NCBI GenBank assembly: GCA_021776095.1
Contig: JAJFGO010000058.1
Coordinates: forward strand, 6,652 to 70,651
From: Kiloniellaceae bacterium
GTDB taxonomy: Bacteria > Pseudomonadota > Alphaproteobacteria > Kiloniellales > J153
DNA: 64,000 nucleotides
Direction of reading: 5' to 3'
Shown piece by piece: positions 8,338 through 32,681 of the stretch. The notes beneath the pieces are model-generated. The model searched no databases. It was not told where the DNA came from and saw only the letters and a list, made by a program, of their open reading frames with translations. How positions within the stretch are numbered: position 1 is the first letter of the stretch; each line of letters begins with the position of its first letter. The position numbers and the translations under genes were made by a program.

Positions 8338-8371
8338 GGCCCGGCTTCGCTGTCCGGGGCGCCGCCGGGCA

Positions 8372-8400
8372 AAACCCGCTTGAGCCGGTGAAGCGGGTTT
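8372..8400 (+). terminator. Rho-independent-type terminator hairpin
   Basis: AAACCCGCTT-GAGCCGGTG-AAGCGGGTTT: a perfect 10-bp stem and 9-nt loop, A-tract before and TTT after. It lies 35 nt after the stop of the 7399-8337 gene. Confidence 0.6.
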
Positions 8401-8414
8401 CGTAGCGTCCTCCC

Positions 8415-11323: not shown

Positions 11324-11342
11324 GCGGACACGTTTTCTGGGG

Positions 11343-11361
11343 CGGAGGATACCGGCCTCCG
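11343..11361 (+). other. Short stem-loop after the SBP gene
   Basis: CGGAGG-ATACCGG-CCTCCG (6-bp stem) followed by a T/C-rich tract. Weak. Confidence 0.2.
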
Positions 11362-11407
11362 TCCCGGTTTCCTTTCCCGATACGCCGCCTGTCAGGGGAC
11401 AACCGCG

Positions 11408-12289
11408 TTGGATTTCGGTCCCTATTTTCTGTTAGCCACGCTTGAAGGCGCCGTCGGCGCGGCGGTGCTGGCGCTGACCGCCCTCGGCCTGTCGCTGGTC
11501 TTCGGGGTCATGCGGATCGTCAATGTCGCCCACGGTGCGTTCTTTATGCTGGGCGCCATTATCGCGTGGTGGGTCGCCGATACGCTCGGCGCTGGCCCTA
11601 TGCTCAGCTTTCTCGCCGCTTTGATTATCAGTCCCCTGGCCGTCGGTGCCGTGGCCGTGTTGGCGGAACGCCTGATCCTGCGACGGCTGAACTACAATCC
11701 CGAAAGCACCATCGTCGCCACCATCGGTTTGCTTTACGTCATCGAGCAGGTTGCGCTGATGACCTATGGGCCGGACGCTAGGCCGGTCGTGGCGCCCATT
11801 GACTTTCGGGTCCAACTGCCCTGGTTCGGGTATTCCGGCTACAAGCTTCTGGTGATCGCGGCGTCCATCGTCGTGATGTTGGCGGTTTGGTGGGGGCTGA
11901 CCCGGACCCGGATCGGGCTGATGATGCGCGCGACCCAATTCGATTCCGAAACCGCGCGCGCCTTCGCGATTCCCGTCGACCGGGTCTATGGCGGCGTCTT
12001 CGCCTTCGGCGCCATGTTGGCGGCTATCGGGGCCGTATTGGTGGTGCCGATCCAACAGGCCCATTACCTCATGGGCAACGACCCGCTGCTGCTGTCCTTC
12101 ATTGTGGTTATCATCGGCGGCCTGGGCAGCTTGAGGGGGACCGTTCTCGCGGCCGTCATAATCGGGTTGAGCGACGGCATTATCTCGGTCTTCTTCTCGC
12201 CGACCCTCGCTAAGATTATCGCCACCCTTGTTGTCGCCATGATCCTGGTCATACGGCCGAAGGGTTTGTTCGGCACCCAATCCGCATGA
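11408..12289 (+). CDS. Branched-chain-type ABC permease (LivH-like)
   Basis: 293 aa, polytopic. TTG start with AGGGGA about 10 nt upstream. Typical LivH N-terminus (LSLVFGVMRIVNVAHGAFFMLGA). Confidence 0.85.
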   Translation: MDFGPYFLLATLEGAVGAAVLALTALGLSLVFGVMRIVNVAHGAFFMLGAIIAWWVADTLGAGPMLSFLAALIISPLAVGAVAVLAERLILRRLNYNPESTIVATIGLLYVIEQVALMTYGPDARPVVAPIDFRVQLPWFGYSGYKLLVIAASIVVMLAVWWGLTRTRIGLMMRATQFDSETARAFAIPVDRVYGGVFAFGAMLAAIGAVLVVPIQQAHYLMGNDPLLLSFIVVIIGGLGSLRGTVLAAVIIGLSDGIISVFFSPTLAKIIATLVVAMILVIRPKGLFGTQSA

Positions 12290-13236
12290 GATCACGCTGG
12301 GCCAACAAAGCGACCGTCCTACATGTGGGCGTGATCGCGGTTCTTTTCGCGCTTCAGTTCGTATTGCCCGAATACCACCATGTGAATCTTGCCAGGGTCA
12401 TGGTTCTGGCCAGCTTCGCCATGGGCTACAATATCGCCTTCGGCTATACTGGCCTATTGAGCCTGGGCCACGCCATGTTCTTCGCGGCTGGGCTCTACGC
12501 GGCCGGGCTCATGGCGCAGTTTGCCGGCGTCAGTGCGGCGGGCGGTCTCCTCCTAGGCGTCGCGGCTGGTTTGGCCTTGGCCGCGGCGGTCGGTTGCCTG
12601 GCCCTGCGCACCACCGGCGTCTCTTTCATGATCGTCACCCTCATGTTCGCCCAGGCGGCGTTTCTGGCGACCTTCTATTTCGGCGAATATACCCGCGGGG
12701 ACGAGGGTTTCGTGATCCCGTCCCATCTGCGCCATCTGTTCGGGCTTTTCCTGGCCGAGCCGGCCACACGCTATTTCGTGGCGCTGTCCCTGTTCGCCCT
12801 GTGCCTGGCGATCAGCTTCGCCGTCGCCCGTTCGTCCATGGGGCGCGTCCTGGCGGCTATCCGGGAAAACGAGGAACGGACCCGGATGCTGGGCTACAAC
12901 GTCTTTCTATATAAGCTTGTGGCTTTGACGATCTCGGGCGCCATGTCTGGCCTAGTTGGGGCCGCTTACGGGATGCTCTTCGGCTACGTCGGCGCGACCT
13001 TCGCGTCGATCCAATATTCGATTTTTCCGCTGCTCTGGGTCTTGATGGGCGGCGCCGCCACGGTCCTGGGGCCGTTCGTCGGCACCTTGCTGATGTTCTA
13101 TCTGGTGGACATCAGCAGCGGCTTCACCTCCGCCAACATGTTGATCGTTGGCCTGGCCTTGATCGGTTTGATCCTGTTCTTTCCCAAGGGGATCCTGGGA
13201 AGCCTCCGCGAGCGGGCCGCGCCATGGCTGCCATGA
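12286..13236 (+). CDS. Branched-chain-type ABC permease (LivM-like)
   Basis: 316 aa, polytopic. ATGA start/stop overlap with the preceding gene. GYTGLLSLGHAMFFAAG motif. Confidence 0.85.
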   Translation: MRSRWANKATVLHVGVIAVLFALQFVLPEYHHVNLARVMVLASFAMGYNIAFGYTGLLSLGHAMFFAAGLYAAGLMAQFAGVSAAGGLLLGVAAGLALAAAVGCLALRTTGVSFMIVTLMFAQAAFLATFYFGEYTRGDEGFVIPSHLRHLFGLFLAEPATRYFVALSLFALCLAISFAVARSSMGRVLAAIRENEERTRMLGYNVFLYKLVALTISGAMSGLVGAAYGMLFGYVGATFASIQYSIFPLLWVLMGGAATVLGPFVGTLLMFYLVDISSGFTSANMLIVGLALIGLILFFPKGILGSLRERAAPWLP

Positions 13237-13958
13237 CCTTGCTCTCCACCGAGAACCTGTCGAAGCAGTTCGGCGGCTTGCGGGCCGTGGACTCGGTCAG
13301 TTTCACCTTCCTCGAGGGCGAGATTCGCGCGCTCATCGGCCCGAACGGGGCCGGCAAGACCACTTTCGTCAACCTTCTGTCTGGGCGCATTCCGCCGACC
13401 GAGGGGCGGGTCGTTTTCGCCGGCGAGGACGTCACCCGGCTTCCCGCTCACGCCCGGGTCAACCGCGGGATCGCCTACACGTTCCAGATCACCAGCGTTT
13501 TCGCCGGCATGTCGGCCATGGACAACGTCAAGCTTTCCGCCCAAAGGCGCTTGTCGAAAGGACTGTTCGGCCCGGACCCGGCGTTGTTGGAGCGCGTCGC
13601 CCTGAGCGCCCTCGAGCGGGTTGGGCTTGCTGCGCGGCGGGACGAGATCGCCGGGAACTTGAGCTATGGACATCAACGGCTTCTCGAAGTCGCCATGGGG
13701 CTTGGCCTGGACCCAAAGCTTCTGATTCTCGACGAACCCACCCAGGGCCTTTCGGACGAAGAGATCGCGGTTTTTGTCACCTTGGTGAAGGAGATCGCGC
13801 AGAATGCCTCTATCCTGCTGATCGAACACAACATGGATGTGGTGATGGGCCTGGCCCACACTATCACGGTCTTGGATCGGGGCCGCATTCTGGCGCAAGG
13901 GACTCCGGATGAAATCCGGCGTAACGAGGCGGTGAGACGGGCGTATCTGGGCAAGTGA
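13224..13958 (+). CDS. ABC ATP-binding protein (LivG-like)
   Basis: Walker A GPNGAGKTT. LSYGHQRLLEVAMGL. LILDEPTQGL. An in-frame ATG at 13233 (ATGA overlap) is an alternative start. Confidence 0.9.
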   Translation: MAAMTLLSTENLSKQFGGLRAVDSVSFTFLEGEIRALIGPNGAGKTTFVNLLSGRIPPTEGRVVFAGEDVTRLPAHARVNRGIAYTFQITSVFAGMSAMDNVKLSAQRRLSKGLFGPDPALLERVALSALERVGLAARRDEIAGNLSYGHQRLLEVAMGLGLDPKLLILDEPTQGLSDEEIAVFVTLVKEIAQNASILLIEHNMDVVMGLAHTITVLDRGRILAQGTPDEIRRNEAVRRAYLGK

Positions 13959-14659
13959 TGCTGACGGTCGAAAACATAAACTGCTTCTACGGCCACACCC
14001 AGGTGTTGCGGGATTTTTCACTCGCGGCTGAGGCGGGGCGGATTCTTTGTGTCATGGGGCGCAACGGGGCCGGCAAGACCACGGCGCTCAAATCCATCAT
14101 GGGCCTGGTACGCCCACGTAGCGGGCGGGTGATGATCGACGGGGTCGATATCGCGGCCCTACAGGCCGAGGAAGCGCCTCGGCACGGCATTGGCTACGTG
14201 CCGCAAGGCCGGCGCCTGTTTTCCGAACTGACCGTGGGGGATAATCTGGAAATCGGCCTGATGGCACGGGGGTCCGGCGATGATGTTAAAGAACATACGC
14301 TGGATTTCTTCCCGGCTCTGCGCGAGCGGCTGGACCAACGGGCCGGCACCTTGTCGGGCGGCGAACAGCAGATGCTGGCGATTGCGCGGGCGCTGTGTCT
14401 GGAACCGACAGTCTTGCTTCTGGATGAGCCGACCGAGGGCCTGATGCCCTCCATGATCGCGCGCATCCGGGACGTGGTGCTAGAGTTGAAAAGCCAGGGC
14501 GTCGCCGTGATCCTGGTCGAACAGCGGGTCGATGCCGTCCTGCAGATTGCCGACCGGGTGCTGTTCGTGGAAAACGGACGCAGCCGCGATACGGTCGAGG
14601 CCGAAGCCCTGCGGGACTCGCCGGACATGCTCGACCGTTACCTCGGCATGGGTCATTGA
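13958..14659 (+). CDS. ABC ATP-binding protein (LivF-like)
   Basis: GRNGAGKTT. LSGGEQQMLAIARAL. LLLDEPTEGL. The ATG at 13958 overlaps the upstream TGA; the track start at 13955 is an in-frame GTG. Confidence 0.9.
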   Translation: MLTVENINCFYGHTQVLRDFSLAAEAGRILCVMGRNGAGKTTALKSIMGLVRPRSGRVMIDGVDIAALQAEEAPRHGIGYVPQGRRLFSELTVGDNLEIGLMARGSGDDVKEHTLDFFPALRERLDQRAGTLSGGEQQMLAIARALCLEPTVLLLDEPTEGLMPSMIARIRDVVLELKSQGVAVILVEQRVDAVLQIADRVLFVENGRSRDTVEAEALRDSPDMLDRYLGMGH

Positions 14660-14726
14660 TGGATTCATCAAGCTGCGGCGCATAAGGACCTTTGCGGCAA
14701 CGCGGCGAAATTAGGGAGGAACGGCC

Positions 14727-15902
14727 ATGGCGGACTCGGCACATAAACTGGTCATCAAGAACATCGGGCTGATCCTATCCGGGGCTTTGGAAAAACCGAT
14801 CATCGAGGGCGACACGGTGGTGGCGGTCGGCGGCAAGATTGCCGCGGTCGGATACGAGAAGGACCTCGATACGGATCAGCCGGATAGCTTGATCGATGCC
14901 CATGGTGTCGCCCTCTCGCCGGGCCTGATCGACAGCCACGTGCATCCGGTCATCGGCGATTACACACCGCGCCAGCAGCAGCTGAACTGGATCGACTCCT
15001 GTTTGCACGGTGGCGTCACCACCATGATCTCAGCGGGCGAGGTGCACATGCCGGGCCGGCCCAAGGATATCGTCGGGCTCAAGGCCATGGCCATCGCGTC
15101 TCAACGCTGGTACGAGAATTTCCGCCCCTCCGGGGTCAAAGTCCTGGCCGGAGCGCCGGTCATCGAAGAGGGCATGGAAGAGCAGGACTTCAAGGACATG
15201 GCCGAGGCTGGCGTGACGCTGCTGGGCGAAGTCGGCTTAGGTTCGGTCAAGGCCGGGGACAAGGCCAAGCAGATGGTGGCCTGGGCGCGCAAATACGGAA
15301 TTCAATCCACCATCCATACCGGCGGCCCGTCGATTCCCGGCTCCGGCCTGATCGACAAGGACGTGGTACTGGAGGCGGACGCCGACATCATCGGCCACAT
15401 CAACGGCGGTCATACCGCGCTGCCCGACGATCAGATCGTCTGCTTGTGCGAAAGGTGCGGGCGCGGGATCGAGCTCGTGCACAACGGGAACGAGCGGGCC
15501 GCACTACTTGCCATGCGCACCGCCTTCGAGTTGAAGCAGTCGGAACGGGTGATCCTGGGCACCGATGCGCCGGCCGGTTCGGGCGTGCAGCCGCTCGGCA
15601 TCCTGCGCATGATCGCCATGCTGTCGTCGCTCGGCGACGTGCCGGCGGAAATCGCCTTTTGCTTTGCCACCGGCAATACTGCGCGCATGCGCGGGCTTGA
15701 TTGCGGCTTGATCGAGGCCGGCAAGTCCGCCGACTTTATCCTGATCGATACCGCCCAGCACGCGCCGGGCAAGGACATGTTGGAGTCGATCCACCAAGGC
15801 AATCTGCCCGGCGTCGGCATGACCGTGATCGACGGCGTGGCGCGCTCCGCGCGGTCCCGCAATACGCCGCCGGCGACGAGACTGCCGGAACAGGTGACAT
15901 AG
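14727..15902 (+). CDS. ena: Enamidase-type amidohydrolase (6-oxo-1,4,5,6-tetrahydronicotinate amidohydrolase-like)
   Basis: 391 aa with GGGAGGA SD. Metal-binding DSHVHP motif. The overall sequence (KNIGLILSG..., GPSIPGSGLIDKD, IIGHINGGHTALPDD, LGTDAPAGSGVQPLG) is what I recognise as the enamidase subfamily. Genomic context includes hnr. Confidence 0.7.
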   Translation: MADSAHKLVIKNIGLILSGALEKPIIEGDTVVAVGGKIAAVGYEKDLDTDQPDSLIDAHGVALSPGLIDSHVHPVIGDYTPRQQQLNWIDSCLHGGVTTMISAGEVHMPGRPKDIVGLKAMAIASQRWYENFRPSGVKVLAGAPVIEEGMEEQDFKDMAEAGVTLLGEVGLGSVKAGDKAKQMVAWARKYGIQSTIHTGGPSIPGSGLIDKDVVLEADADIIGHINGGHTALPDDQIVCLCERCGRGIELVHNGNERAALLAMRTAFELKQSERVILGTDAPAGSGVQPLGILRMIAMLSSLGDVPAEIAFCFATGNTARMRGLDCGLIEAGKSADFILIDTAQHAPGKDMLESIHQGNLPGVGMTVIDGVARSARSRNTPPATRLPEQVT

Positions 15903-15920
15903 AGCCGCGCCGCGTGGGGG

Positions 15921-16508
15921 CTAACGCAAGCCGTCCTCGCCCTTGGCTTCTTCGGCGGTCAAGCCGCCGACGCGGGGCAAGGGACGCCCCGAATCCGTGA
16001 CCGAGATTGCGACCATGATCTCGTTAGCGCGGGGCGCGTCGTTGATGCGCACTTCCATGCCGTCGAAGTGGGAGCGCACATAGGCCGCGTCCTTGTGGCC
16101 CAGAGGGATGTCGAGCGGCTGGCCCATGGAGCCCATCTTTTTTGACGAGGGCACCAGGGCGGCGCCTTTCTCGACCTCGGCGCGTAACGGTTTGCCCAGG
16201 CGTGGATGTAGAATCGCCGCCGCGTGCTCCAGCTCGCCGTTCTCGCCGACCATGGCGGCCTTGCCATAGCTTTCCGCCTGCCGAGGTTCGATGCCCAGGG
16301 CCTCGACGCATCGCCGGCCCAGCACACCGCCCAATTCCTCACCGACGGCCATCAGTTCTTCCAGGTCTTCTTGATATCGGCCCGCAAAGGGATTTTCGAT
16401 CACCGCCACAGCCGCCGCGCGGCGGGTCGGGGGCGAGATATCCTTGCCGATTTCCTTGCGGGTCTCTTCCACAATGGTGACGATCTTGCGGATCTTTGCT
16501 TGGGTCAT
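15921..16508 (-). CDS. Amino-acid-synthesis family protein (AA_synth/DUF1185), copy 2
   Basis: 195 aa with VIENPFAGRY, GELEHAA, YVRSHFDG.EV.INDAPR and a GEDGLR C-terminus. Paralog of the upstream gene. ATGA-type 4-nt overlap with it. Confidence 0.7.
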   Translation of the reverse strand: MTQAKIRKIVTIVEETRKEIGKDISPPTRRAAAVAVIENPFAGRYQEDLEELMAVGEELGGVLGRRCVEALGIEPRQAESYGKAAMVGENGELEHAAAILHPRLGKPLRAEVEKGAALVPSSKKMGSMGQPLDIPLGHKDAAYVRSHFDGMEVRINDAPRANEIMVAISVTDSGRPLPRVGGLTAEEAKGEDGLR

Positions 16509-17089
16509 CTCAGCCCATCCTCTCCTTTGATCTCGCTGGCCTTCAATCCACCGGCGCGGTTGTGGATACGCGGCCCGGTCGTCATGACTAGGGCGACCAG
16601 CATTTCATTCTTTCGGGGCGCGTCGTTGATGCCGACTTCGATTCCGTCGAAGTGCGAGCGGACATAGGAGGCGTTGGTATGGGTCACCGGAATGTCGAGC
16701 CGGGTGCCGGGCCCGCCGACCTTTTTCGACGAGGCGACGATGGCCTTGGAATTCGGGATCAGCTCGCGCATGGAATAGCCGCCCGGCGCGTGCCAGAGGG
16801 CGGCATGTTCCAATTCTCCCGCCTCGCCGACGATAGCGCCCTTGCCATAGCCTTCCACAATGGAGGCGTCGCCGCCCAGGGCGTCGATCAAATCCTGAGC
16901 CATCTTCAGGCCGAGCGGTTTCAAATCGTCGATAAAGCCGACAATGTCCTCGACATAGCGTCCGGCGAAGGGGTTTTCGATGACCGTGCAAACCGCCGCC
17001 CGCCTCAAGGGCAGCGCGGCCACGGGCCCGCCCTCGTGAAAAATCTCGTCGATGGTGATCACCGACTTCCTGACAACAACCTCAGGCAT
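16505..17089 (-). CDS. Amino-acid-synthesis family protein (AA_synth/DUF1185), copy 1
   Basis: 194 aa carrying the same conserved blocks as copy 2. 8-nt overlap with the upstream UPF0280 gene. Confidence 0.7.
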   Translation of the reverse strand: MPEVVVRKSVITIDEIFHEGGPVAALPLRRAAVCTVIENPFAGRYVEDIVGFIDDLKPLGLKMAQDLIDALGGDASIVEGYGKGAIVGEAGELEHAALWHAPGGYSMRELIPNSKAIVASSKKVGGPGTRLDIPVTHTNASYVRSHFDGIEVGINDAPRKNEMLVALVMTTGPRIHNRAGGLKASEIKGEDGLR

Positions 17090-17948
17090 GAATCAGGCTC
17101 TCCACCTTTTGTTCGCCTTGCGATAGCCTCGCGGGCTCCATCTTATCGACCGCCCGGACTTCGCCCTGAAGACATAACCTGGCTGCGACGATCAAGCCAC
17201 GGCGGCGCATATCTTGCGCCAGCTTCGCGCCCCGGTCGAGGGCCGTGGCCTTCTGATCCGCGCTGAGCGGATCGACCCTGACCGTCACAAGCCGTTCGCC
17301 CAGATCGCTATCGGGCGATAGATCCCGTGCGGGCGCACGGCGGACCGCGGGCGCGCCGGGCAGGTCGACCGCATTGGCGATCAGGGTCGCCGCCGCATCC
17401 GCCGCCGCGGCACTCTCCGCCAGTACGCTCACGGCGTCGGCGATACCCAAACTGTGGCTGCGTCCGCGCCAGCCGCTGGTCGCGATGCCGCGTATCGGGT
17501 CCTGGCTGGATATGGTCACCGTTTCCAAGCCCTCGCCGGAGGCCACGCCCAGGGTAAAAGCCTCGCCCTGATTGAGGTATAAGGCGATGTCGCCGCCATT
17601 GTTGACATAGGCCCGGCGCAAGCGCCGGCCGTGGCGAAGTTCCGCCAAAATATGATCGGCGACCGCGCCAGCGACCGCCGCCATGGGGGTCACAAACATC
17701 CTGGCGTGGGGCGCGACGGCGCGGCGCATTCGCTGCGCGACCGGGCCCCTGGGCACGGCGGCCCCTGGGCCCAGGGTTGCCCGCAGGATCGACAACTCCG
17801 CGACCAGGGTTTCCAAGACGGGCTCGAAGGCTCGATTGGCTTGGCCATAGGCGGCGGCGACATCTTCGGGACTTCCGCTTGCCTCCACGATCAAATCGAT
17901 CGGCCCATGTTGCAAATGAAGCCGCTTGCCGTCCAGTAGCAGAGCCAT
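17082..17948 (-). CDS. UPF0280 family protein (ApbE-like fold)
   Basis: Started at the internal ATG (MALLLDGKRLHLQHGPIDLIVEA...), 26 nt after the hnr stop. The track start at 18029 would overlap hnr by 55 nt. VNNGGDIALY and TSGWRGRSHSLGIADAV blocks look like UPF0280/ApbE-like proteins. Confidence 0.6.
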   Translation of the reverse strand: MALLLDGKRLHLQHGPIDLIVEASGSPEDVAAAYGQANRAFEPVLETLVAELSILRATLGPGAAVPRGPVAQRMRRAVAPHARMFVTPMAAVAGAVADHILAELRHGRRLRRAYVNNGGDIALYLNQGEAFTLGVASGEGLETVTISSQDPIRGIATSGWRGRSHSLGIADAVSVLAESAAAADAAATLIANAVDLPGAPAVRRAPARDLSPDSDLGERLVTVRVDPLSADQKATALDRGAKLAQDMRRRGLIVAARLCLQGEVRAVDKMEPARLSQGEQKVESLIHA

Positions 17949-17974
17949 CTGTGGGCCGCACTGGCGGAAGGCGC

Positions 17975-19498
17975 TCACTTGTCGAGATCCGGATCGGCCC
18001 AGCCGTAGTTCCCGGCACGAGTCGGCCAAGGATTGTCCTGGCCCTGGCGAATGCGGACTTGACCTTTCAAGACATGATCGTTTTGCGGTCCGGTGACGCC
18101 CTTGGCCGCTTCTTCGATCGGCACCACGTGGTCCATATGGCCGCCCAGGGTTTCGTAGTCTTCGCGCCGCATGGTGAATTCGATCGGCGCCACCAGGGCG
18201 GGCGTCGGAACATAGCCGAAGGCTTGCTCCGGCATACGGGTGACGTCGGCCATGATGGTGATGCCGCCGCCCGGCCAGACATAGGCCGGCGCCCCGCCAC
18301 AGGTAATGTGGGTCAGCATCTGTTTGACCGAGCGGGTCAACTTAACCGGGTTTTCGGTCACCCCGGCGCGCAACGATCCGCCCGCGCCGCCCATGAACAG
18401 GACCGAGCATAGGGCCGGTTCGCAATTCTCCTCGATCCGCCGAACCGAAGGCAGCAATCGCTCCGGCATCTCCAACTGTTGGGGGATCAAGTCTTCGTCG
18501 AGTTCGAAGTACGCAAACTGCTCCCCGGTGGTGGACACCATGAGTAAGGACTGGCCGGGGCGGGCTACCTTCGGATTGAATGGGTCGAGGATCAGCAAGG
18601 GATCGTCGATATCGGTGCCGCCCCAGCCGGTGCCCGGCTCCGCGACCTGAAAATAGCGGCCCGGCGTGGAGCGCCGCCCCTTGACCCTGATGCCGGTGGC
18701 CTGCCAGCCGATCACCTTACCGGCCTGATGTTCCGACATGACTCCGGTGATGTGATCGTCGACCACCACCACCTCGTCGACCAAGCCCTTCCATTGCGAG
18801 GCGAACATTCCGACCGTCGCAGATCCGCAACCGACTCGCATGCGCTGTTCCTCGACACCGTTGATGATCGGCGCCTTGCCGGCCTCGACCACCACCGTCG
18901 AGCCGTCGTCGATGGTCATCTCGACGGGTTTCCGATTGCACAGGTCCATGAGCGACTGACAGGTCACGCGGCCTTCCTTCTTTCCGCCGCCGGTCAGGTG
19001 ATGTACGCCCCCGATGGACAGCATCTGGGAGCCGTACTCGCCGGTGGTCACATGGCCGATCGGCTCGCCGTCCACACGCACCGGGTTTTGTTCGGGGCCC
19101 AGGTGCCGGTCGGTGTCGATCTTCACCTTGGCGCCGCAATAGCTGAAAATGCCTTCGGTCACGACCGTGATCATGTCGATTCCGCTGACCTCGCGGGACA
19201 CGATGAAGGGTGCCGGCTTGTAATCCGGGTAGGTGGTGCCGGCGCCGATCGCGGTGACGAAGGCCTCGCCCGGGGTCACAACCTCGCCGTCCCAGTCCTT
19301 GCCCAGGTCCAAAAACGGCACCAGCTTGCCGCTGTCTTCCTGGCGTCGTTCGATGAGGACCAGCGGATCGACCCGGACCAGTTGCCCGCCTTCGTTGGCG
19401 TAGCGGTCGCAGGCGCCGGCCCGCCCGTCGGCGATGTAGCACATCACCGGGCAGGCATCGCAGCGGATCTTTTCAACCGCCGGCTTGTCCTTGCTCAT
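17975..19498 (-). CDS. hnr: 6-hydroxynicotinate reductase-like iron-sulfur flavoprotein
   Basis: 507 aa. N-terminal Cys cluster KIRCDACPVMCYIADGRAGACDRY. Further Cys residues follow (CGAKV, VTCQSL, VGCGSATVG, ITCGGAPAY). Recognised as the Hnr family. Neighbours are enamidase and a Mo-hydroxylase. Confidence 0.7.
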   Translation of the reverse strand: MSKDKPAVEKIRCDACPVMCYIADGRAGACDRYANEGGQLVRVDPLVLIERRQEDSGKLVPFLDLGKDWDGEVVTPGEAFVTAIGAGTTYPDYKPAPFIVSREVSGIDMITVVTEGIFSYCGAKVKIDTDRHLGPEQNPVRVDGEPIGHVTTGEYGSQMLSIGGVHHLTGGGKKEGRVTCQSLMDLCNRKPVEMTIDDGSTVVVEAGKAPIINGVEEQRMRVGCGSATVGMFASQWKGLVDEVVVVDDHITGVMSEHQAGKVIGWQATGIRVKGRRSTPGRYFQVAEPGTGWGGTDIDDPLLILDPFNPKVARPGQSLLMVSTTGEQFAYFELDEDLIPQQLEMPERLLPSVRRIEENCEPALCSVLFMGGAGGSLRAGVTENPVKLTRSVKQMLTHITCGGAPAYVWPGGGITIMADVTRMPEQAFGYVPTPALVAPIEFTMRREDYETLGGHMDHVVPIEEAAKGVTGPQNDHVLKGQVRIRQGQDNPWPTRAGNYGWADPDLDK

Positions 19499-19511
19499 GT
19501 CGCACCCTCGG

Positions 19512-22256
19512 TCATTCGCCTATCGCCTTTATGGCGGCGCGAACTTTGTCCGGCGTGGCGGGCAGGTCGCGGACCAGCGCGCCGGTGGCGTCGCGGATCG
19601 CGTTCAGGATCGCCGGCGCCGTGGGAATCAGGACATGCTCGCCCAAACCTTTTGCGCCGTAAGGGCCTTCCGCGTCGGCCACTTCGACAATGATATTCTC
19701 CACTTCCGGCACATCGCCGAAAGTGGGAATGAGATAGTCGTGCAGGTTTTCCGTGCGACCGGGAATGTAGTCTTCCATCAAGGCCATGCCGATGCCCTGA
19801 ACCGACCCGCCTTCGATCTGCCCCTCGATCAGCACCGGATTTATAGCGCGCCCAACGTCGTGCGCCGTGCTCAGTCGTTCGAGCTTTACCGTCCCCAGTG
19901 CGGTATCGACGGTCAGTTCCATGATCTGTGCGCCGTAGCCGAAGACCGCGTAAGGCACACCCTGGCCGTCCTCGTCCAGGGGTTTGGTCGGTGGATCGTA
20001 AGTTTCCTCGCCGCGAAAGGCGTAGCCGAACTTGTCCAGGGGCAGGCGCGACAAATCGATCTCAGCGACCGCCGCACCGTCGGTCAACTCGATACGGCCG
20101 GGCTTGAAAAGCAAACCTGCGCCGCTCGATACATTGCCATGACGAAGAATTTCTCGTCGCAAAGAGTCGCCGGCTAGTTTGGCCGCTGAACCGCTGACAT
20201 AGGTTTGGCGCGACGCCGATGTTTTTCCCGCGTCCGGCGTCAAATCGGTGTCGCAGCCGACAAGTTCCAGGTCGTGGACCGGGACGCCCACGGCATCGGC
20301 AGCGATCTGGGCAATCACCGTATTCGCGCCCTGGCCGATATCCGACGCCCCCTGATGCAAGACCACGCCGCCGTCCGGCCTTACCCCTATGCGGATCGTC
20401 GAGGGGTTCGGCAGCGAGGTGTTGCCGCAGCCATACCAGCAGGACGCGATCCCGATGCCGCGCCGCAAGCCCGTGCCGTTGGCCCGCCGGTTGAAGCCAC
20501 TCGCCGCGCCTTGGGCGCGCGCCCAGGCCGGTTTGAGGGCCTCCAGGCACGCGGTAATGCCGACCCCGCTCTCGAACACCTGCCCCGTCACGGTCGCTTG
20601 GCCGTCCAAGAGCGCGTTACGAAGGCGAAACTCCAGGCGGTCCATGCCGAGCGCAACCGCCAGTTCGTCATAGAGGCATTCCTGCGCGATGGCCGATTGC
20701 GGCACGCCGAATCCGCGGAAGGCGCCGGACGGCGGGCAGTTGGTATGAATCGCCGCGCTACGCGCTACATAATTGGGCGTGAAGTAGGGCCCGGAGGCAT
20801 GAACCGGTACGCGGTTGGCCACGGTCGGGCCCCAAGAGGCGTAGGCGCCGGTATTGAAAACTCCGTCGAATTCAAACGCGGTGATTTTCCCTGTTTCGTC
20901 GCAGCCGATCCTTGCGGTCATCTCGGAAGGATGCCGCTTGGTGGTCGATTGCATGGATTCCTGGCGGCTATAGGTCAGGGCTGCCGGACGGTTTAGGTGC
21001 CAGGCGGCGATTGCCATATAGGGCTGCAGGGAAACGTCGAGCTTGGAGCCGAAGCCGCCGCCGCAGGCGCTCGGTACGATGCGGACTTGCGCCGGGTCGA
21101 TGCCCATGATTTCGGCGAGCGACTCCCGGTCCATATGGGGCGCTTGGGTCGAGGCGAAGACCTCGATGCGGTCCCCGACGCGGCGCGCGAAACCGGCTTC
21201 CGGTTCGATATAGGCGTGCTCGACGAAGGGCGTCGAGAATCGGCCTTCGGCGACATGGGCCGCCTGGGCGAATCCGGCCGCCACATCGCCCCGCGCCACA
21301 TAGCCGCGGATCAGGACGTTTTCGTCGCGGCCGTCATGCAGCCGGGGGGCATCCGGGGCTTGCGCTTCGACCGGGGTCAAAACGTGGGGTAAAGGCACCC
21401 ATGTAATCGGGAATCGGTTCAGGTCAAGCAGCTTCATGGCGGCGCGCTCACCGGCGACGGCGGCCACCGCCTCGCCGCGATAACGGGCAGCCTTTTCCGC
21501 GAAGACAGGCTGATCGGCGAAGGGCGGGATAACCCCGAAACAGTTTCGGCCGGCGATATCCGCCGCAGTGAACACCGCCAGGACGCCGGGATGATCCGTG
21601 ACGAAACCGGCAAGGTCGCCAAAGCTAAAGGCCGCATGGTGATGCGGGCTGCGCAGAACCCGGACCACGACCGCGTCGTCCGGCGTGGCGTCCGCGCCGA
21701 AGAGCTCGGTTCCCGCCACCTTGGGTTCGCCGTCCAAACGGCGGACTGACGCGCCCACACCGGCGCCCGCCGGGGGCGATACCTCGCTACCATTGAAGCC
21801 GGTCGCATACACCACCGCATCGACGATTTTGCGATAGCCGGTGCAGCGGCATAAAACGCCGCCAAGAGCATCGGCCACCTGGTCCCGGGTCGGATGGGGT
21901 GTGCGCTGGAGCAGCGCGGCTGCGGAGACCAGCATGCCCGGCGTGCAGATGCCGCATTGGGCCGCGCCGAAATGCAGGAACGAATTTTGCAGTGGCGACA
22001 ACGTGCCATTCGCCTTCAAGCCTTCGACCGTGGTGACCTTCGCACCCTCTACTTGCCCAGCGGGGACTAGGCAGGCGCAACAGGCTTCGCCGTCGATCAG
22101 CACGGTGCAGGCGCCGCAGTCGCCGGCGTCGCATCCCACCTTGGTGCCGGTCTGCCCCAAACTATCCCGCAGCACGGTGGATAGACGGTCGCTTGGCGCG
22201 ACCTTGGCGCGAACCGGCACCTCGTTCAGATCGAAGCTGACCTCAATACCGCTCAT
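19512..22256 (-). CDS. Fused [2Fe-2S] + molybdopterin-binding hydroxylase subunit (xanthine dehydrogenase family; probable nicotinate dehydrogenase)
   Basis: 914 aa. N-terminal GCDAGDCGACTV and CRCTGYRKI 2Fe-2S motifs. These are followed by about 750 aa of aldehyde oxidase/xanthine dehydrogenase a/b-hammerhead and Mo-cofactor domains. Confidence 0.85.
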   Translation of the reverse strand: MSGIEVSFDLNEVPVRAKVAPSDRLSTVLRDSLGQTGTKVGCDAGDCGACTVLIDGEACCACLVPAGQVEGAKVTTVEGLKANGTLSPLQNSFLHFGAAQCGICTPGMLVSAAALLQRTPHPTRDQVADALGGVLCRCTGYRKIVDAVVYATGFNGSEVSPPAGAGVGASVRRLDGEPKVAGTELFGADATPDDAVVVRVLRSPHHHAAFSFGDLAGFVTDHPGVLAVFTAADIAGRNCFGVIPPFADQPVFAEKAARYRGEAVAAVAGERAAMKLLDLNRFPITWVPLPHVLTPVEAQAPDAPRLHDGRDENVLIRGYVARGDVAAGFAQAAHVAEGRFSTPFVEHAYIEPEAGFARRVGDRIEVFASTQAPHMDRESLAEIMGIDPAQVRIVPSACGGGFGSKLDVSLQPYMAIAAWHLNRPAALTYSRQESMQSTTKRHPSEMTARIGCDETGKITAFEFDGVFNTGAYASWGPTVANRVPVHASGPYFTPNYVARSAAIHTNCPPSGAFRGFGVPQSAIAQECLYDELAVALGMDRLEFRLRNALLDGQATVTGQVFESGVGITACLEALKPAWARAQGAASGFNRRANGTGLRRGIGIASCWYGCGNTSLPNPSTIRIGVRPDGGVVLHQGASDIGQGANTVIAQIAADAVGVPVHDLELVGCDTDLTPDAGKTSASRQTYVSGSAAKLAGDSLRREILRHGNVSSGAGLLFKPGRIELTDGAAVAEIDLSRLPLDKFGYAFRGEETYDPPTKPLDEDGQGVPYAVFGYGAQIMELTVDTALGTVKLERLSTAHDVGRAINPVLIEGQIEGGSVQGIGMALMEDYIPGRTENLHDYLIPTFGDVPEVENIIVEVADAEGPYGAKGLGEHVLIPTAPAILNAIRDATGALVRDLPATPDKVRAAIKAIGE

Positions 22257-22266
22257 GTCGCCGGCC

Positions 22267-23100
22267 TCACGGCAAACAGCCGAGAAGGCCGCGCCGGACC
22301 AACTCGCAAGCCGCTTCGCTGCGGTATCCGGTGCTCGCGCGCACGTCGTCTATGGGCGATAAAGGGCCGAAGTGCGCCGGCGATACGATCCCGGCCAAGG
22401 TCTCGTCGCAAGGCTTCCCGATCAGCGCCTGTTCCAAACCCTCCATACGCTGCGCGACCGCCGAGCAGGCCCCGACCGAGACCCGCGCGTCGCCTACCTT
22501 GCCACCGTCACCGGCTTCCAGGCGGGCCGCCACCATGGCGATGGAAATGACCAGGTACTTCCTGGCCCCCAGTTTGATGAAATGCGACCGTCCCTGCGCC
22601 GCCCCGGCCGGGATTGCAAATCCGGTCACGATCTCGTCCGGCCGTAGGGCGGTCGCGCGGTTGCCCAGAACGAAGTCCGAAAGGGCAACCTGGCGTTTGC
22701 CTTGCGCCGAGTCGGTTTCCACGACCGCATCTAGAGCCAGCAACGGCGGCACCCCATCGGCGGCCGGCGAGGCATTGCAGATATTCCCCGCCACCGTGGC
22801 TCGGTTTTGGATCTGCACTGAGCCGACTTCCCGCGCGGCCAGTTTCAGCGCGTCGAAGGCGGGCGGCAGATCGGCGGTTATCACGTCGCTCCAGGTGGTC
22901 AGGGCGCCGATGCGCCAGCCGTCGTCGTCGTCGCGCCTAATTCCGCGCAATCCCTCAACGGCCGAGATGTCCAGAACCGCCTCGTTGACTGCCCGGTCGC
23001 GCAGGCCCGGATAGAAATCGGTGCCACCGGCAAGGACCGTCCACCGGTTCTCCGCCAAGAGCGATAGCGCCGCATCTACTGTCGTCGGCCGCGCGTACAT
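22267..23100 (-). CDS. FAD-binding subunit of the molybdenum hydroxylase (CoxM/XdhB-like)
   Basis: 277 aa. LAGGTDFYPGL FAD-binding block and a CO-dehydrogenase flavoprotein C-terminal-like region. First gene of the minus-strand operon. Confidence 0.85.
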   Translation of the reverse strand: MYARPTTVDAALSLLAENRWTVLAGGTDFYPGLRDRAVNEAVLDISAVEGLRGIRRDDDDGWRIGALTTWSDVITADLPPAFDALKLAAREVGSVQIQNRATVAGNICNASPAADGVPPLLALDAVVETDSAQGKRQVALSDFVLGNRATALRPDEIVTGFAIPAGAAQGRSHFIKLGARKYLVISIAMVAARLEAGDGGKVGDARVSVGACSAVAQRMEGLEQALIGKPCDETLAGIVSPAHFGPLSPIDDVRASTGYRSEAACELVRRGLLGCLP

Positions 23101-23362
23101 GTCGCCTTTCCCCGCAAACGAGCGTCTCGGGTTCGAACGCCAACGATAGATCGCGAACTCCCGTCATCGGCGCCCGGAGGCAATCATACAGCACGGCGGT
23201 GTCGGCGCAAAATGGTCCGAGGCAGGCAGGGAGACGACGCAGAACTTTGGGCTCACGGCCTTGACGGCGGCGGCCGTGCGGGTTCAGAGTCTCGATGCGC
23301 GCCAGGGCAAATTCGATGAAATTTTGAAAAACCTGAACCGTCGGAAGGACGGCTAGGCAAGG

Positions 23363-24295
23363 ATGGCAAGCCACTTGATCGGCGAAACGACGCGCGGTGT
23401 ATTTCCCATTTCAGCCACGCCGTTTACCGACGACGGGTCGCTCGATCTCGAGTCCGTCGATAGCCTGGTCGATTTCTATCTTAAGTGCGGTGCGCACGGG
23501 CTGACCATCTTAGGCATGATGGGCGAGGCGCCGAAGCTCAGCGAAGCGGAATCCCTCGCCGTCGTCGAGCGGGTGATGCGGCGGGTTGACGGCCAGGTGC
23601 CGGTGATCGTCGGGGTCAGCAATCCTGGCGTCAGAGGCCTTGCCGGCCTATCGAAAGCCTCCATGGACATAGGCGCGGCCGGGGTGATGATCGCGCCGCC
23701 GCCAGGTCTGAAAACGGAAGCTCATGTGCTCGGCTATTTCGACACGGTGTTCGAGGCGCTCGGCCCGGAAATTCCGGTCTGCTTTCAGGACTTCCCGACC
23801 AGCACTGGCGTGCATATTTCCGTCGACACGTTCTTGAAGCTGGTCGAATATCACCCGAGCCTAGTCATGCTCAAGCACGAGGATTTCCCGGCCCTGCGGA
23901 AGCTTACGGCCATACGCACGGCTGGCGATCTGGTGGAGAACCGGCGGATTTCCATCTTGGTGGCCAACGCCGGGCTCTACTATCCGCTGGAAATGCGTCG
24001 CGGGGCCGACGGTGTGATGACCGGCTTTGCTTTTCCAGACATGCTGGTCAAAGTTTACCAGCTTTTCGAAAACAACGATCCCGAGGCCGCCGAAGATCTC
24101 TACGATCTCTATTTGCCGTTGTTGCGTTACGAGTATCAAACCGGCTTCGGGCTGGCCATCCGCAAGGAAATCCTGCGCCGCCGCGGCGCCATTCGCTGCG
24201 CCGCGACGCGCGCGCCAGGGCCGGCCATGAACGCCGACGAGCACGCCGAACTGACTATCTTGATGGACCGTCTGGAGCGAAAGCTAGGGCGCTAG
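23363..24295 (+). CDS. Dihydrodipicolinate synthase-family class I aldolase/lyase
   Basis: 310 aa. RGVFPISATPF N-terminus, GLTILGMMGE, and the VMLKHEDFP lysine region typical of the DapA/NAL family. Its TAG stop lies inside the first arm of the downstream repeat. Confidence 0.8.
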   Translation: MASHLIGETTRGVFPISATPFTDDGSLDLESVDSLVDFYLKCGAHGLTILGMMGEAPKLSEAESLAVVERVMRRVDGQVPVIVGVSNPGVRGLAGLSKASMDIGAAGVMIAPPPGLKTEAHVLGYFDTVFEALGPEIPVCFQDFPTSTGVHISVDTFLKLVEYHPSLVMLKHEDFPALRKLTAIRTAGDLVENRRISILVANAGLYYPLEMRRGADGVMTGFAFPDMLVKVYQLFENNDPEAAEDLYDLYLPLLRYEYQTGFGLAIRKEILRRRGAIRCAATRAPGPAMNADEHAELTILMDRLERKLGR

Positions 24296-24561: not shown

Positions 24562-26397
24562 TCAGTCGAGCTCGAAGGCGTCCTTGTAGTTGAGCTTGAG
24601 AGCCGGGTCCTGATCTTCCTTCTCGAGGTAGCAGTCGCCGACCACGAGGACTTCGATGTCGGATCCCATGAAACAGCGGAAGGCGTCTTCGGGCGTGCAC
24701 ACGATCGGCTCGCCGCGCACGTTGAAACTGGTGTTGATGACCACCGGACAGCCGGTTTTGGCTTTGAACGCGCTGATCAGCGCGTGATAGCGCGGGTTGG
24801 TCTGGGCATGCACCGTTTGAATGCGGGCCGAGTAGTCCACGTGGGTGATCGCCGGGATCTCCGATCGTGGAACATTGAGCTTATCGATGCCGAACAGCGC
24901 CTTCTCATCGTCGGTCATGGCAATGCGCCGGTCTTCCCGGACGCCGGCGACCATCAGCATATAGGGGCTGTCGCCGTCCATTTCGAACCACTCGGCAACA
25001 TCCTCGCGCAGCACCGAGGGCGCGAAGGGGCGGAAGGATTCGCGGTATTTGACCCGAAGGTTCAGCGTCTTCTGCATGGTCGGTGAGCGCGGGTCGCCCA
25101 GGATCGAACGGCCGCCAAGGGCGCGCGGGCCAAATTCCATCCGGCCCTGGAACCAGCCGACCGCCTTTTCCGCGGCCAAGGCGGCCGCGGTCTTATCAAT
25201 CGTTTCCGCGCTCGAAAGAACGGTGAACTTCGCGCCGGCCGCCGTTAGGCGGGCCTCGATATCGTCCTGCGCGAACGCGGGGCCCAGGTAAGCCCCTTTC
25301 ATGCTGTCCGCCGCCCCGTTGAGCTTGCGCGGTTGACCCTGGAAATGGTGATAGGTAACGAGGGCCGCGCCCAAGGCGCCGCCGGCGTCGCCGGCCGCGG
25401 GCTGAACCCATATGTTTTCGAAACAGTTTTCACGCAGGAGCTTGCCGTTCGCCACGCAATTTAGGGCAACGCCGCCCGCCAAACATAGGTTCTTTTCGCC
25501 GGTTTCCGTCGCGATCGAACGGCCGAGCCGCAACACCACCTCTTCGGTGACGTCCTGGATCGAGGCGGCGATATCCATCTCCCGCTGGGTCAGAGGGGTT
25601 TCCGGGTCGCGTGCGGGTGCACCAAAAAGCTCATCGAACTTTTGGTTGGTCATGCGCAACCCAGTGCAATAGTCGAAATAGGAGAGATCGAGGCGGAACG
25701 AGCCGTCCTCCTTTACATCGATCACATTGTCGAGGATCAGTTTCGAATACTTCGGTTCGCCGTAAGGCGCCAGGCCCATAACTTTGTATTCGCCCGAATT
25801 CACCCGGAACCCGGTGTAGTACGTGAAGGCCGAATAGAGCAGCCCCAGCGAATGGGGAAAGTAAATCTCTCGCATCATCTCGACCGAATTGTCCCGGCCT
25901 TGGCTGAGCGACGTCGTGGTCCATTCTCCGACCCCGTCCATGGTCAGGACCGCCGCGCTCTGAAACGGCGAGGGATAAAACGCGCTGGCCGCGTGGCTTT
26001 GGTGATGCTCCGCGAACAGCAGGCGTTCCTCCCAATCGAATTCCGGCGCATGGCTTTGCAGCTTCTTGCGAAGAAGCGACTTTTGGAAAAGCTTTTCCTT
26101 GAGCCACAGAGGCATCGCCATACGGAAGGATTGGAACCCCTGGGGCGCGTAGGCCACATAGGTTTCAAGAAGGCGCTCGAACTTGAGAAAGGGTTTGTCG
26201 TAAAAGGCCACGAAATCGACGTCCGACAACGCCATGCCGGCTTCCGCTAGGCAGTATTCGATCGCATGAGTCGGGAAATCGGGGTCGTGCTTTTTCCGGG
26301 TAAAGCGCTCTTCCTGTGCCGCGGCCACGATATTCCCATCCTCGATCAGCGCTGCCGCGCTGTCGTGATAAAAGGCCGATAGGCCAAGCACCCGCAT
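24562..26397 (-). CDS. Carbamoyltransferase (NodU/CmcH/SxtI family)
   Basis: 611 aa. The N-terminus MRVLGLSAFYHDSAAALIEDGNIVAAAQEERFTRKKHD is the hallmark of this family. Full-length two-domain architecture. Confidence 0.9.
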   Translation of the reverse strand: MRVLGLSAFYHDSAAALIEDGNIVAAAQEERFTRKKHDPDFPTHAIEYCLAEAGMALSDVDFVAFYDKPFLKFERLLETYVAYAPQGFQSFRMAMPLWLKEKLFQKSLLRKKLQSHAPEFDWEERLLFAEHHQSHAASAFYPSPFQSAAVLTMDGVGEWTTTSLSQGRDNSVEMMREIYFPHSLGLLYSAFTYYTGFRVNSGEYKVMGLAPYGEPKYSKLILDNVIDVKEDGSFRLDLSYFDYCTGLRMTNQKFDELFGAPARDPETPLTQREMDIAASIQDVTEEVVLRLGRSIATETGEKNLCLAGGVALNCVANGKLLRENCFENIWVQPAAGDAGGALGAALVTYHHFQGQPRKLNGAADSMKGAYLGPAFAQDDIEARLTAAGAKFTVLSSAETIDKTAAALAAEKAVGWFQGRMEFGPRALGGRSILGDPRSPTMQKTLNLRVKYRESFRPFAPSVLREDVAEWFEMDGDSPYMLMVAGVREDRRIAMTDDEKALFGIDKLNVPRSEIPAITHVDYSARIQTVHAQTNPRYHALISAFKAKTGCPVVINTSFNVRGEPIVCTPEDAFRCFMGSDIEVLVVGDCYLEKEDQDPALKLNYKDAFELD

Positions 26398-26414
26398 TCC
26401 TTGGCCCGCCCGTA

Positions 26415-26564
26415 TCAGAAAATCGTGTAGATGAAGGGCGCGACCGCGGAGCCCTGGGTGAGGATCACCAGCCCGCCAAACACCAGCATCATGATGACGA
26501 TGGGCATCAACCAGAATTTCTTGCGGATACGCATAAAGGACCAGAGTTCTCTTAGGAAGGACAT
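26415..26564 (-). CDS. Small single-TM protein, DUF5989/SxtK-like
   Basis: 49 aa starting at the internal ATG of the 159-aa track ORF: MSFLRELWSFMRIRKKFWLMPIVIMMLVFGGLVILTQGSAVAPFIYTIF. This matches the small protein I recall always accompanying SxtJ and carbamoyltransferase. It lies 8 nt after the sxtJ-like stop and 17 nt before the carbamoyltransferase ATG. Confidence 0.6.
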   Translation of the reverse strand: MSFLRELWSFMRIRKKFWLMPIVIMMLVFGGLVILTQGSAVAPFIYTIF

Positions 26565-26572
26565 GGCTGCTC

Positions 26573-27013
26573 TCAGAATTGGTTTTTCATGGTTTCGGGC
26601 GCGGGCCCCGGCGGGTCGCGGCGTATCCAATAGGACGCGGCCGTCTTGTCGATCTTTCGCCGCAAAGGGTCCTTGCCCAGGGCCATCATGACCAACGCCG
26701 TGGGTGTCACCGCCAGAAAGAACACCAAGCCCATGATGATCGGATTGGTGATCTTGTGCAGCAGAAGCCCGAGTTTCGTCCACAGCCGGTTGAGTGGCGC
26801 CAGTACGCCTGGCCGGATAAGCGCCGCCACGAGGAACACCGCGGCGACCGCAAGGGCCCAAACACGGGGCGTCGCGCCGCCGAGCAGGGGCCAAAGCCCA
26901 ATAATCAGAAAAACCACGGTAAAGACCACCCCGAAGGCGCGGTCGGACGAGGTCTTAACCGCCTCGTCCCGGGTCAGGGATTCGTGCAAAGCGTTGGTCT
27001 TACTGCTGGTCAT
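26573..27013 (-). CDS. SxtJ-family membrane protein
   Basis: 146 aa with 3-4 TM spans (SDRAFGVVFTVVFLIIGLWPLL...). Position and sequence are as in SxtJ homologues next to carbamoyltransferases. Confidence 0.65.
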   Translation of the reverse strand: MTSSKTNALHESLTRDEAVKTSSDRAFGVVFTVVFLIIGLWPLLGGATPRVWALAVAAVFLVAALIRPGVLAPLNRLWTKLGLLLHKITNPIIMGLVFFLAVTPTALVMMALGKDPLRRKIDKTAASYWIRRDPPGPAPETMKNQF

Positions 27014-30462: not shown

Positions 30463-30489
30463 CTTTCCGCCCGGCGAATTTGTTCGCGC

Positions 30490-30520: not shown

Positions 30521-30531
30521 CCCCGGGACCG

Positions 30532-32677: not shown

Positions 32678-32681
32678 GGAC

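Follow-up and report, generated by a model that had tools for sequence, protein, structure and literature searches.

The DNA analysed here is a 64,000-nucleotide stretch (hereafter the window) of contig JAJFGO010000058.1 in the Kiloniellaceae assembly GCA_021776095.1, a metagenome-assembled genome (MAG) of an uncultured organism that was recovered from a biofilm metagenome and carries methylotroph-type genes. Our subject is a putative nicotinate-degradation locus within it, which the open reading frame (ORF) list and family scans of the window resolve into two convergent operons that together make up a functional unit at 10017–23100. The plus-strand operon (10017–15902) has six genes—a Liv-type binding protein, two permeases and two ATPases of an ATP-binding cassette (ABC) transporter and, last, the enamidase gene ena. 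The minus-strand operon encodes, in this order, the FAD subunit and the fused 2Fe-2S/Mo-cofactor subunit of a molybdenum (Mo) hydroxylase, a 6-hydroxynicotinate reductase-like protein (Hnr), a UPF0280 protein and two DUF1185 paralogues, a and b. The features are as follows:

10017–11323, plus strand: periplasmic substrate-binding protein of Liv type, bearing the twin-arginine signal TRRKAL; Peripla_BP_6, 1.2e-47
11408–12289, plus strand: ABC permease, LivH-like; BPD_transp_2, 4e-33
12286–13236, plus strand: ABC permease, LivM-like; BPD_transp_2, 1e-34
13224–13958, plus strand: ABC ATPase, LivG-like; ABC_tran, 2.5e-29, and BCA_ABC_TP_C
13955–14659, plus strand: ABC ATPase, LivF-like; ABC_tran, 1e-33
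14727–15902, plus strand: enamidase (Ena), 391 aa; matches PDB 2VUN with 363.6 bits
15921–16508, minus strand: DUF1185/AA_synth paralogue b; PF06684, 3.6e-74, 248.4 bits
16505–17089, minus strand: DUF1185/AA_synth paralogue a; PF06684, 1.3e-68, 230.3 bits
17082–17978, minus strand: UPF0280 protein (PRK04334 / PF27030 AbpE_bact) with a predicted ApbE fold, 298 aa; NF003322, 2.5e-112
17975–19498, minus strand: Hnr, short alphaproteobacterial form, 507 aa; 41% identical to Eubacterium barkeri Hnr
19512–22256, minus strand: Mo-hydroxylase fusion subunit, 914 aa; Fer2, Fer2_2, Ald_Xan_dh_C, MoCoBD_1 (4e-74) and MoCoBD_2
22267–23100, minus strand: Mo-hydroxylase FAD subunit; FAD_binding_5, 1.6e-40, and CO_deh_flav_C
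23183–23195, minus strand: possible promoter element of extended -10-like type, CGTGCTGTATGAT, some 85 nt ahead of the FAD-subunit gene

Successive junctions in the minus-strand operon measure 10 nt, 13 nt, a 4-nt overlap (GTGA), an 8-nt overlap and a 4-nt overlap (ATGA); these genes are translationally coupled, and GC content at third codon positions is 0.76–0.83 in every gene of the locus. The UPF0280 gene starts at the GTG at 17978, within the GTGA overlap with the hnr stop, and not at the TTG of the 315-aa ORF. At the other end of the unit, the binding-protein ATG at 10017 is preceded by a ribosome-binding site (GGGAGGG), and the orthologue in L025, an 89%-related locus, is called at 439 aa. 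A previous interpretation made from the letters alone (the sequence-only reading) had given minus-strand genes and coordinates that all agree with ours and that have strong Pfam and NCBIfam matches. It had also described this operon as converging on an amidohydrolase across an 18-bp gap, which is exact: ena ends in TAG at 15900–15902 and DUF1185b at 15921–15923, leaving 18 bp between the operon ends. Two of its statements stand in part. The genes of its span, 14727–23100, are present, but the unit is larger, as ena closes a plus-strand operon that begins at 10017; and the length and coordinates of its "Cys-rich" 507-aa protein are right, while 11 cysteines in 507 aa, six of them invariant, make the epithet an overstatement.

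Direct comparison with the E. barkeri enzymes bore out the proposal that the 507-aa protein is Hnr-like and the amidohydrolase of the enamidase type. The match of Hnr to its E. barkeri counterpart (41% identity) extends over 463 aa (E 1e-110), and more than 100 close homologues exist, many of them named 6-hydroxynicotinate reductase by their sources. In an alignment of 15 Hnr sequences from three phyla, 124 columns are invariant; six cysteines (C13, C16, C20, C30, C224 and C359) are invariant, as is the motif C13-x2-C16-x3-C20-x9-C30, and the GCGSAT segment at 223–228 is invariant as GCGSA(T/S). The window Hnr has no Pfam or NCBIfam model and no sequence match in the PDB, and a search with its predicted structure, which is of moderate confidence (predicted local distance difference test, pLDDT, 73.8), returned no PDB fold match at E < 0.27. 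Ena is 46% identical to the E. barkeri enzyme by BLASTP, and its residues 7–386 align without a gap to residues 3–382 of 2VUN (1.2e-107), the next PDB chain following at 5e-7. The enamidase motifs HVH71, GEVGLG167, HTGG197, HINGG224 and DAP280 are identical in the two proteins; in the amidohydrolase superfamily generally, the binuclear metal is ligated by HxH, an acidic residue of strand 4, two histidines and an aspartate. The window Ena is accordingly a predicted hydrolase of 1,4,5,6-tetrahydro-6-oxonicotinate (THON), yielding 2-formylglutarate and ammonium.

The Mo-hydroxylase carries the set of Pfam domains of the xanthine dehydrogenase family, namely an FAD subunit, 2x[2Fe-2S] and Mo-cofactor domains. 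Its 914-aa polypeptide covers E. barkeri NdhS (residues 1–151), NdhL (167–583) and NdhM (598–911) with no L/M split, at identities of 44%, 36% and 38%, respectively, and the FAD subunit is 31% identical to NdhF. Among PDB entries, 3HRD matches the Mo subunit best if its chains are summed (583 bits, vs. 415 for the best single chain, 1DGJ, the Desulfovibrio aldehyde oxidoreductase). We presume from these similarities that the enzyme is a nicotinate dehydrogenase.

We read the locus, with a probability of about 85%, as encoding nicotinate uptake and the first three steps of reductive nicotinate catabolism. A binding protein exported by the twin-arginine route, presumably the nicotinate- or 6-hydroxynicotinate-binding component, would act with the ABC transporter to import nicotinate (or 6-hydroxynicotinate); the Mo-hydroxylase (FAD subunit plus fused 2x[2Fe-2S]/Mo-cofactor subunit) would hydroxylate C6; Hnr, an iron-sulfur flavoprotein, would reduce 6-hydroxynicotinate to THON; and the enamidase would open the ring of THON to give 2-formylglutarate and ammonium. 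Later catabolism would be encoded elsewhere, probably proceeding via glutarate and glutaryl-CoA as in Azorhizobium. From the homology, the synteny and the biochemistry published for relatives, all of which are established, we infer that the route is active in this uncultured organism. The sequence-only reading had likewise favored a reductive over an oxygenolytic ring opening, and this interpretation is supported both by the homologues of all three E. barkeri enzymes and by the same architecture published for Azorhizobium caulinodans and strain SG-6C (see below). It had reported no nicC/nicX-type gene here, and none occurs among the approximately 55 ORFs scanned in the window; nor do the window's genes make obvious the enzymes that follow 2-formylglutarate or the reductant of Hnr, both of which it had described as not evident.

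For comparison we took 20 Bacillota loci and one from a "Deltaproteobacteria" MAG, all anchored on Ena, and seven distinct alphaproteobacterial loci anchored on Hnr (L025 and L026 are two assemblies of one place and were counted once); the E. barkeri VPI 5359 locus (L001), retrieved with the 2VUN sequence, was compared directly. In 11 of the 20 Bacillota loci, and likewise in the "Deltaproteobacteria" locus, the genes for Ena, Hnr, UPF0280 and DUF1185 form an uninterrupted block; five more, E. barkeri included, have all four within one locus. Where this module is split (E. barkeri and L002–L004), UPF0280 stays by hnr and DUF1185 by ena, and on two short contigs (L007 and L008) DUF1185 follows ena, with hnr and UPF0280 not on those contigs. 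The four genes constitute a module common to Bacillota and Proteobacteria, and the three small genes of the window are long-standing partners of Hnr and Ena rather than local additions. Among the alphaproteobacterial loci, L025 has a gene order identical to that of the window (71–94% identity per protein), and the order FAD subunit, fused Mo/FeS subunit, Hnr, UPF0280, DUF1185 recurs in L027, L028, L030 and L032. Counting the window, hnr comes immediately after the Mo subunit gene in seven of eight alphaproteobacterial loci (the window, L025, L027, L028 and L030–L032) and overlaps it in L027, L028, L030 and L031; the exception, L029, has hnr and UPF0280 only, with no Mo-hydroxylase nearby. A MarR gene lies 0.1–6 kb past the last operon gene in L027, L028, L029 and L030.

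Some of these loci hold further genes. In L030 (13581–14648) and L031 (12195–13280), the DUF1185 genes are separated from the Liv-type transporter by a VanA-like Rieske oxygenase gene, whose product might act as a demethylase and channel a methylated derivative of nicotinate into the pathway. Further, L027 (13621–21415) and L028 (15567–21515) share, beside the operon, MarR, SIR2_2, a 678-aa guanylate-kinase/glycosyltransferase-3/PYNP_C fusion, a QRPTase-like gene and a tripartite ATP-independent periplasmic (TRAP; DctM) transporter—a set that looks pyridine-nucleotide-related.

The window cluster is a new copy of a cluster type that is already published. Such a cluster is conserved in A. caulinodans ORS571, Bradyrhizobium japonicum USDA110, Rhodopseudomonas palustris HaA2 and Bradyrhizobiaceae strain SG-6C (Shettigar 2012; PMC3511419), with loci given as AZC_2790–2804, blr3818–3830 and RPB_1658–1671 (its Figure 4) and with contents described as covering the first three steps together with an ABC transporter and conserved unknowns; that study credits Alhapel 2006 for the proteobacterial clusters. 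SG-6C Hnr is 42% identical to the E. barkeri enzyme, and the strain grows on nicotinate and 6-hydroxynicotinate (PMC3511419). The THON/enamidase route is summarised for E. barkeri and A. caulinodans in PMC9304392. Likened by the published description, the window has the same content (Mo-hydroxylase, Hnr, enamidase, putative ABC transporter, conserved unknowns) and is likewise alphaproteobacterial and of aerobic type, but its host differs in being an uncultured biofilm MAG with methylotroph-type genes. Unlike the MarR-bearing L027–L030, the window cluster has no adjoining MarR or LysR regulator.

The likeness to E. barkeri is looser. There the order is LysR, Hnr, an ApbE-like protein, Hgd, NdhF/S/L/M, a PTS_EIIC_2-type carrier, Ena, DUF1185 and then a B12-dependent lower pathway. 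The first three enzymes are homologous between the two loci (31–46%), and both have an ApbE-like gene after hnr as well as a DUF1185 gene. However, NdhS, NdhL and NdhM are separate in E. barkeri whereas the FeS and Mo subunits are fused in the window; DUF1185 is duplicated in the window and a single gene in E. barkeri; the importer is an ABC system in the one and a PTS_EIIC_2-type carrier in the other; and the window lacks the B12-dependent lower pathway (hgd, hmd, mgm, mii, dmd, dml).

The gene next to hnr offers a possible role in cofactor attachment. The window UPF0280 protein is 33% identical to the product of the gene after hnr in E. barkeri, an orthologue that itself scores 29.3 bits against Pfam ApbE (cut-off 25.6). 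Its AlphaFold2 model (pLDDT 86.5) retrieves, at Foldseek ranks 1–40, DUF375 (2O34) and then exclusively ApbE/Ftp/FmnB structures, with probabilities of 0.97–1.00, and on this model the protein has the ApbE flavin-transferase fold. In the UPF0280 family profile, NGGDIA and ADAxAT align, weakly (E 0.03), with GGEIRL and TADGLAT of Vibrio cholerae ApbE. UPF0280 shares with ApbE/Ftp/FmnB (PF02424; PDB 6NXI, 4XGV, 4IFU, 7ESA) the fold and, as far as this weak alignment goes, the GGD/E-I and (T/A)AD-x-x-AT segments, at TM-scores of 0.33–0.52 and identities of 12–16%. The targets of those enzymes, however, are extracytoplasmic FMN_bind-type domains with an [ST]GA[ST] site, and Hnr has no such domain. 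By inspection, the UPF0280 N-terminus, MSAFRQCGPQMALLLDGKRLHLQHGP, has neither a hydrophobic signal nor a lipobox, unlike the usual ApbE, and the protein would therefore be cytoplasmic. Hnr reportedly carries a covalently bound flavin. Given this and the ApbE fold, a dedicated cytoplasmic flavin transferase is the most economical role for UPF0280, and we lean, by a little, toward the view that it attaches the covalent flavin to Hnr.

For the DUF1185 pair, the evidence points further down the pathway. Paralogues b and a are 53% and 47% identical, respectively, to the product of the DUF1185 gene after ena in E. barkeri and 49% identical to each other, and both span profile positions 1–175 of 175 in PF06684. 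Paralogue b matches PDB 2QTP (Ruegeria pomeroyi SPO0826) with 330 bits (2.9e-98), which makes the two near-orthologues. As Liv-type ABC genes SPO0822–0825 are listed beside SPO0826 (PMC2954203), R. pomeroyi DSS-3 is likely to have this cluster too. The label "amino acid synthesis" given to the family derives solely from those neighboring Liv-type transporter genes (PMC2954203), which in this cluster type would be the putative nicotinate importer. Another member of this Pfam family is TgnF of the Acinetobacter baylyi trigonelline pathway, which is reported to stimulate the oxidation of succinate semialdehyde, with no defined reaction (Perchat 2018, as cited in PMC7913881). In that pathway, too, a pyridine-3-carboxylate ring is opened, the product being a formyl/semialdehyde dicarboxylate. 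On the strength of this hint we tentatively place the DUF1185 pair at or just after ring opening, acting on the enamine or the 2-formyl-dicarboxylate product, an assignment that could well prove wrong.

How Hnr is reduced is a separate matter. Residues 2–56 of E. barkeri Hnr match Fer4 families, and all anaerobe sequences bear this N-terminal 2x[4Fe-4S] ferredoxin domain; by contrast, the window Hnr and all six alphaproteobacterial homologues lack it and start directly at the 4-Cys motif, having instead a 16-aa insert and a C-terminal tail of about 45 aa, both of low confidence in the model. Electrons must therefore reach the short Hnr by a route other than that of the anaerobe enzyme. A library-wide search returned 305 Hnr clusters (50% identity) at E ≤ 1e-30, and most of the diverse full-length clusters have the N-terminal domain; the short form occupies very few clusters, yet includes thousands of close variants, and is a compact clade. 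Two representatives, P0131 (969 aa) and P0135 (982 aa), carry by fusion a GltD/NfnB-like NAD(P)H-oxidoreductase module (Fer4_20 + Pyr_redox_2) at the C-terminal end of Hnr, a clue that some lineages may feed Hnr from NAD(P)H. A gene for an aldehyde:ferredoxin oxidoreductase (AFOR; AFOR_N/AFOR_C) lies directly upstream of the FAD-subunit gene in L027 (1406–6374) and L030 (4654–6414), the L027 interval additionally holding genes for a 7Fe-type ferredoxin, a 2-oxoacid:ferredoxin oxidoreductase, an acyl-CoA dehydrogenase and CoA_transf_3; here AFOR could catalyze an aldehyde-oxidizing step that returns low-potential electrons to Hnr. The donor would thus seem to vary between Hnr lineages. No AFOR, ferredoxin, 2-oxoacid:ferredoxin oxidoreductase or GltD-like Hnr fusion occurs among the scanned genes of the window, and the candidate electron sources for its Hnr are a ferredoxin encoded elsewhere and the adjacent, co-translated Mo-hydroxylase.

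Several observations weigh against the reading proposed above. The short Hnr is without the two [4Fe-4S] clusters that characterised Hnr is reported to have, so that neither the ferredoxin-dependent activity of EC 1.3.7.1 nor a covalent flavin may be assumed for it; the window UPF0280 falls below the Pfam ApbE threshold, its profile match to ApbE chains being the weak one already given; in L027 and L028, ena is missing from the 10 kb around the operon; and in L031, which belongs to a genome with a second hnr copy, hnr has no adjacent UPF0280. Within the window, the ORFs scanned include no glutaryl-CoA dehydrogenase, CoA-transferase III or aldehyde dehydrogenase, and, in a search for evidence of co-transcription, the sequencing runs containing the stretch proved to be of metagenome DNA only, with no RNA run found. 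Finally, the substrate of the Mo-hydroxylase is not readable from its sequence, given 31–44% identity to Ndh and a subunit architecture that differs (fused S-L-M). As specificity in these hydroxylases is not predictable at such identities, the same enzyme set might act on some other pyridine or N-heterocyclic carboxylate (e.g., a hydroxypyridine carboxylate or a nicotinate derivative), with nicotinate not the physiological substrate. The importer, a Liv-type ABC system and no known nicotinate carrier, would suit such a role, and the additional genes in relatives (the VanA-like Rieske oxygenase of L030 and L031; the QRPTase-like, SIR2_2 and glycosyltransferase-3 genes of L027 and L028) hint at other entry substrates. 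However, SG-6C, with the same cluster type and ABC transporter, grows on nicotinate and 6-hydroxynicotinate (PMC3511419), the Ndh chains are the best summed PDB match, and there is no characterised Hnr or Ena relative with a different substrate, the biochemically studied members acting on 6-hydroxynicotinate and THON. We regard a different substrate as improbable.

Two further alternatives concern how the parts work together. The Mo-hydroxylase and Hnr might form one redox-neutral unit in which the two electrons that nicotinate gives up at the Mo site pass through 2Fe-2S/FAD directly to Hnr, for a net conversion of nicotinate and H2O to THON that needs neither an external donor nor an external acceptor. 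The loss of the 2x[4Fe-4S] input domain from the short Hnr fits this idea, as do its insert and tail, whose low confidence is what docking segments could show, the position of hnr directly behind the Mo subunit gene in seven of eight alphaproteobacterial loci (with overlap in four) and the lack of any other redox partner encoded in the window. Yet the AFOR genes beside the operon in L027 and L030, together with the ferredoxin and 2-oxoacid:ferredoxin oxidoreductase of L027, point to a ferredoxin donor; L029 has hnr with no Mo-hydroxylase nearby; the Hnr–GltD-like NAD(P)H fusions of other lineages show external donors to be the norm; and the nicotinate hydroxylase of Azorhizobium is said to feed the respiratory chain, which also counts against direct transfer. 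A redox-neutral unit is, on this evidence, unlikely. We find it similarly doubtful that UPF0280 and DUF1185 serve Hnr as structural subunits or as chaperones—that is, neither a flavin transferase nor an enzyme of the ring-opened product—although both are translationally coupled to hnr, the window UPF0280 has no significant Pfam ApbE match, and DUF1185 remains by hnr where ena is missing (L027 and L028). An hnr with no adjacent UPF0280, as in L031, is what would be expected of a maturation factor acting in trans; in split modules the two helpers part company, DUF1185 going with ena and UPF0280 with hnr; and TgnF is reported to stimulate an aldehyde-oxidation step of trigonelline catabolism (PMC7913881). 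The alphaproteobacterial cluster might even be a self-contained machine, in which a cytoplasmic UPF0280 flavinylates Hnr, the Mo-hydroxylase reduces Hnr directly, turning nicotinate into THON with no net redox input, and the DUF1185 pair processes the enamine or 2-formylglutarate, as TgnF may. We consider this full combination quite unlikely; were it true, it would supply functions for two long-standing unknown families and account for the operation, in a cell that respires oxygen, of a step that is ferredoxin-dependent in anaerobes.

Under our preferred reading, in which the locus takes up nicotinate and carries it reductively through THON to 2-formylglutarate, the pathway itself is not new: biochemical knowledge of the reductive THON route in aerobic Alphaproteobacteria dates from 1989–1992 and knowledge of the gene cluster from 2006/2012, so that the sequence-only reading was right about a cluster type already in the literature. 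What value remains lies in the helper genes and in how the short Hnr is reduced. Both UPF0280 and DUF1185 are families of wide distribution for which no reaction has been defined, and Hnr has no Pfam model or structural relative. Cultured carriers (Azorhizobium, Bradyrhizobium, Ruegeria) make the helper-gene and electron-donor questions directly testable.

Evidence on the control of the minus-strand operon comes from the region upstream of the FAD-subunit gene. When this region is aligned with that of L025, no conserved stretch free of interruptions is longer than CGTGCTGTATGAT (identical at 12 of 13 bases), and the rest of the 3' part aligns patchily; the case for a promoter element here is weak, resting on this conservation. 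A scan for promoters and terminators found sites no more numerous than in shuffled sequence. Divergent from the operon across a 262-bp spacer is a DHDPS/NAL-family gene (23363–24295), which we considered as an enzyme of 2-formylglutarate and a cluster member and rejected, as it is absent from the syntenic L025 and from every other locus. At the other flank, 7399–9905 encodes two membrane proteins outside any Pfam family: the smaller (312 aa) has a weak ClpP-like match, and the larger (496 aa) is polytopic. The latter (8415–9905) was likewise rejected as a cluster member: it lies beside the binding protein in L025 only (78% identity) and did not turn up in loci of more distant relatives. A second Mo-hydroxylase had been suspected at 45479–49744, but the genes there encode a P-type ATPase and a MerR regulator, together with a cytochrome c and a methyltransferase.

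Elsewhere in the window, a NodU/CmcH-type carbamoyltransferase (611 aa) is encoded next to an SxtJ-like small membrane protein (24562–27013), and a sugar-type ABC importer is followed on the same strand by DhaL, a homologue of PEP-utilising enzyme I and DhaK (29143–39185). The methylotroph-type genes occupy 39353–42724 and 57851–62802; they comprise a malate-thiokinase-like succinyl-CoA-ligase pair, a class-V aminotransferase and a pyrroloquinoline quinone-dependent (MxaF/XoxF-like) dehydrogenase, the last accompanied by a cytochrome c, a binding-protein-like gene and a beta-propeller gene. A flavin-containing monooxygenase-like (trimethylamine-monooxygenase-like) gene at 49900–51261 adjoins a second Liv-type transporter.

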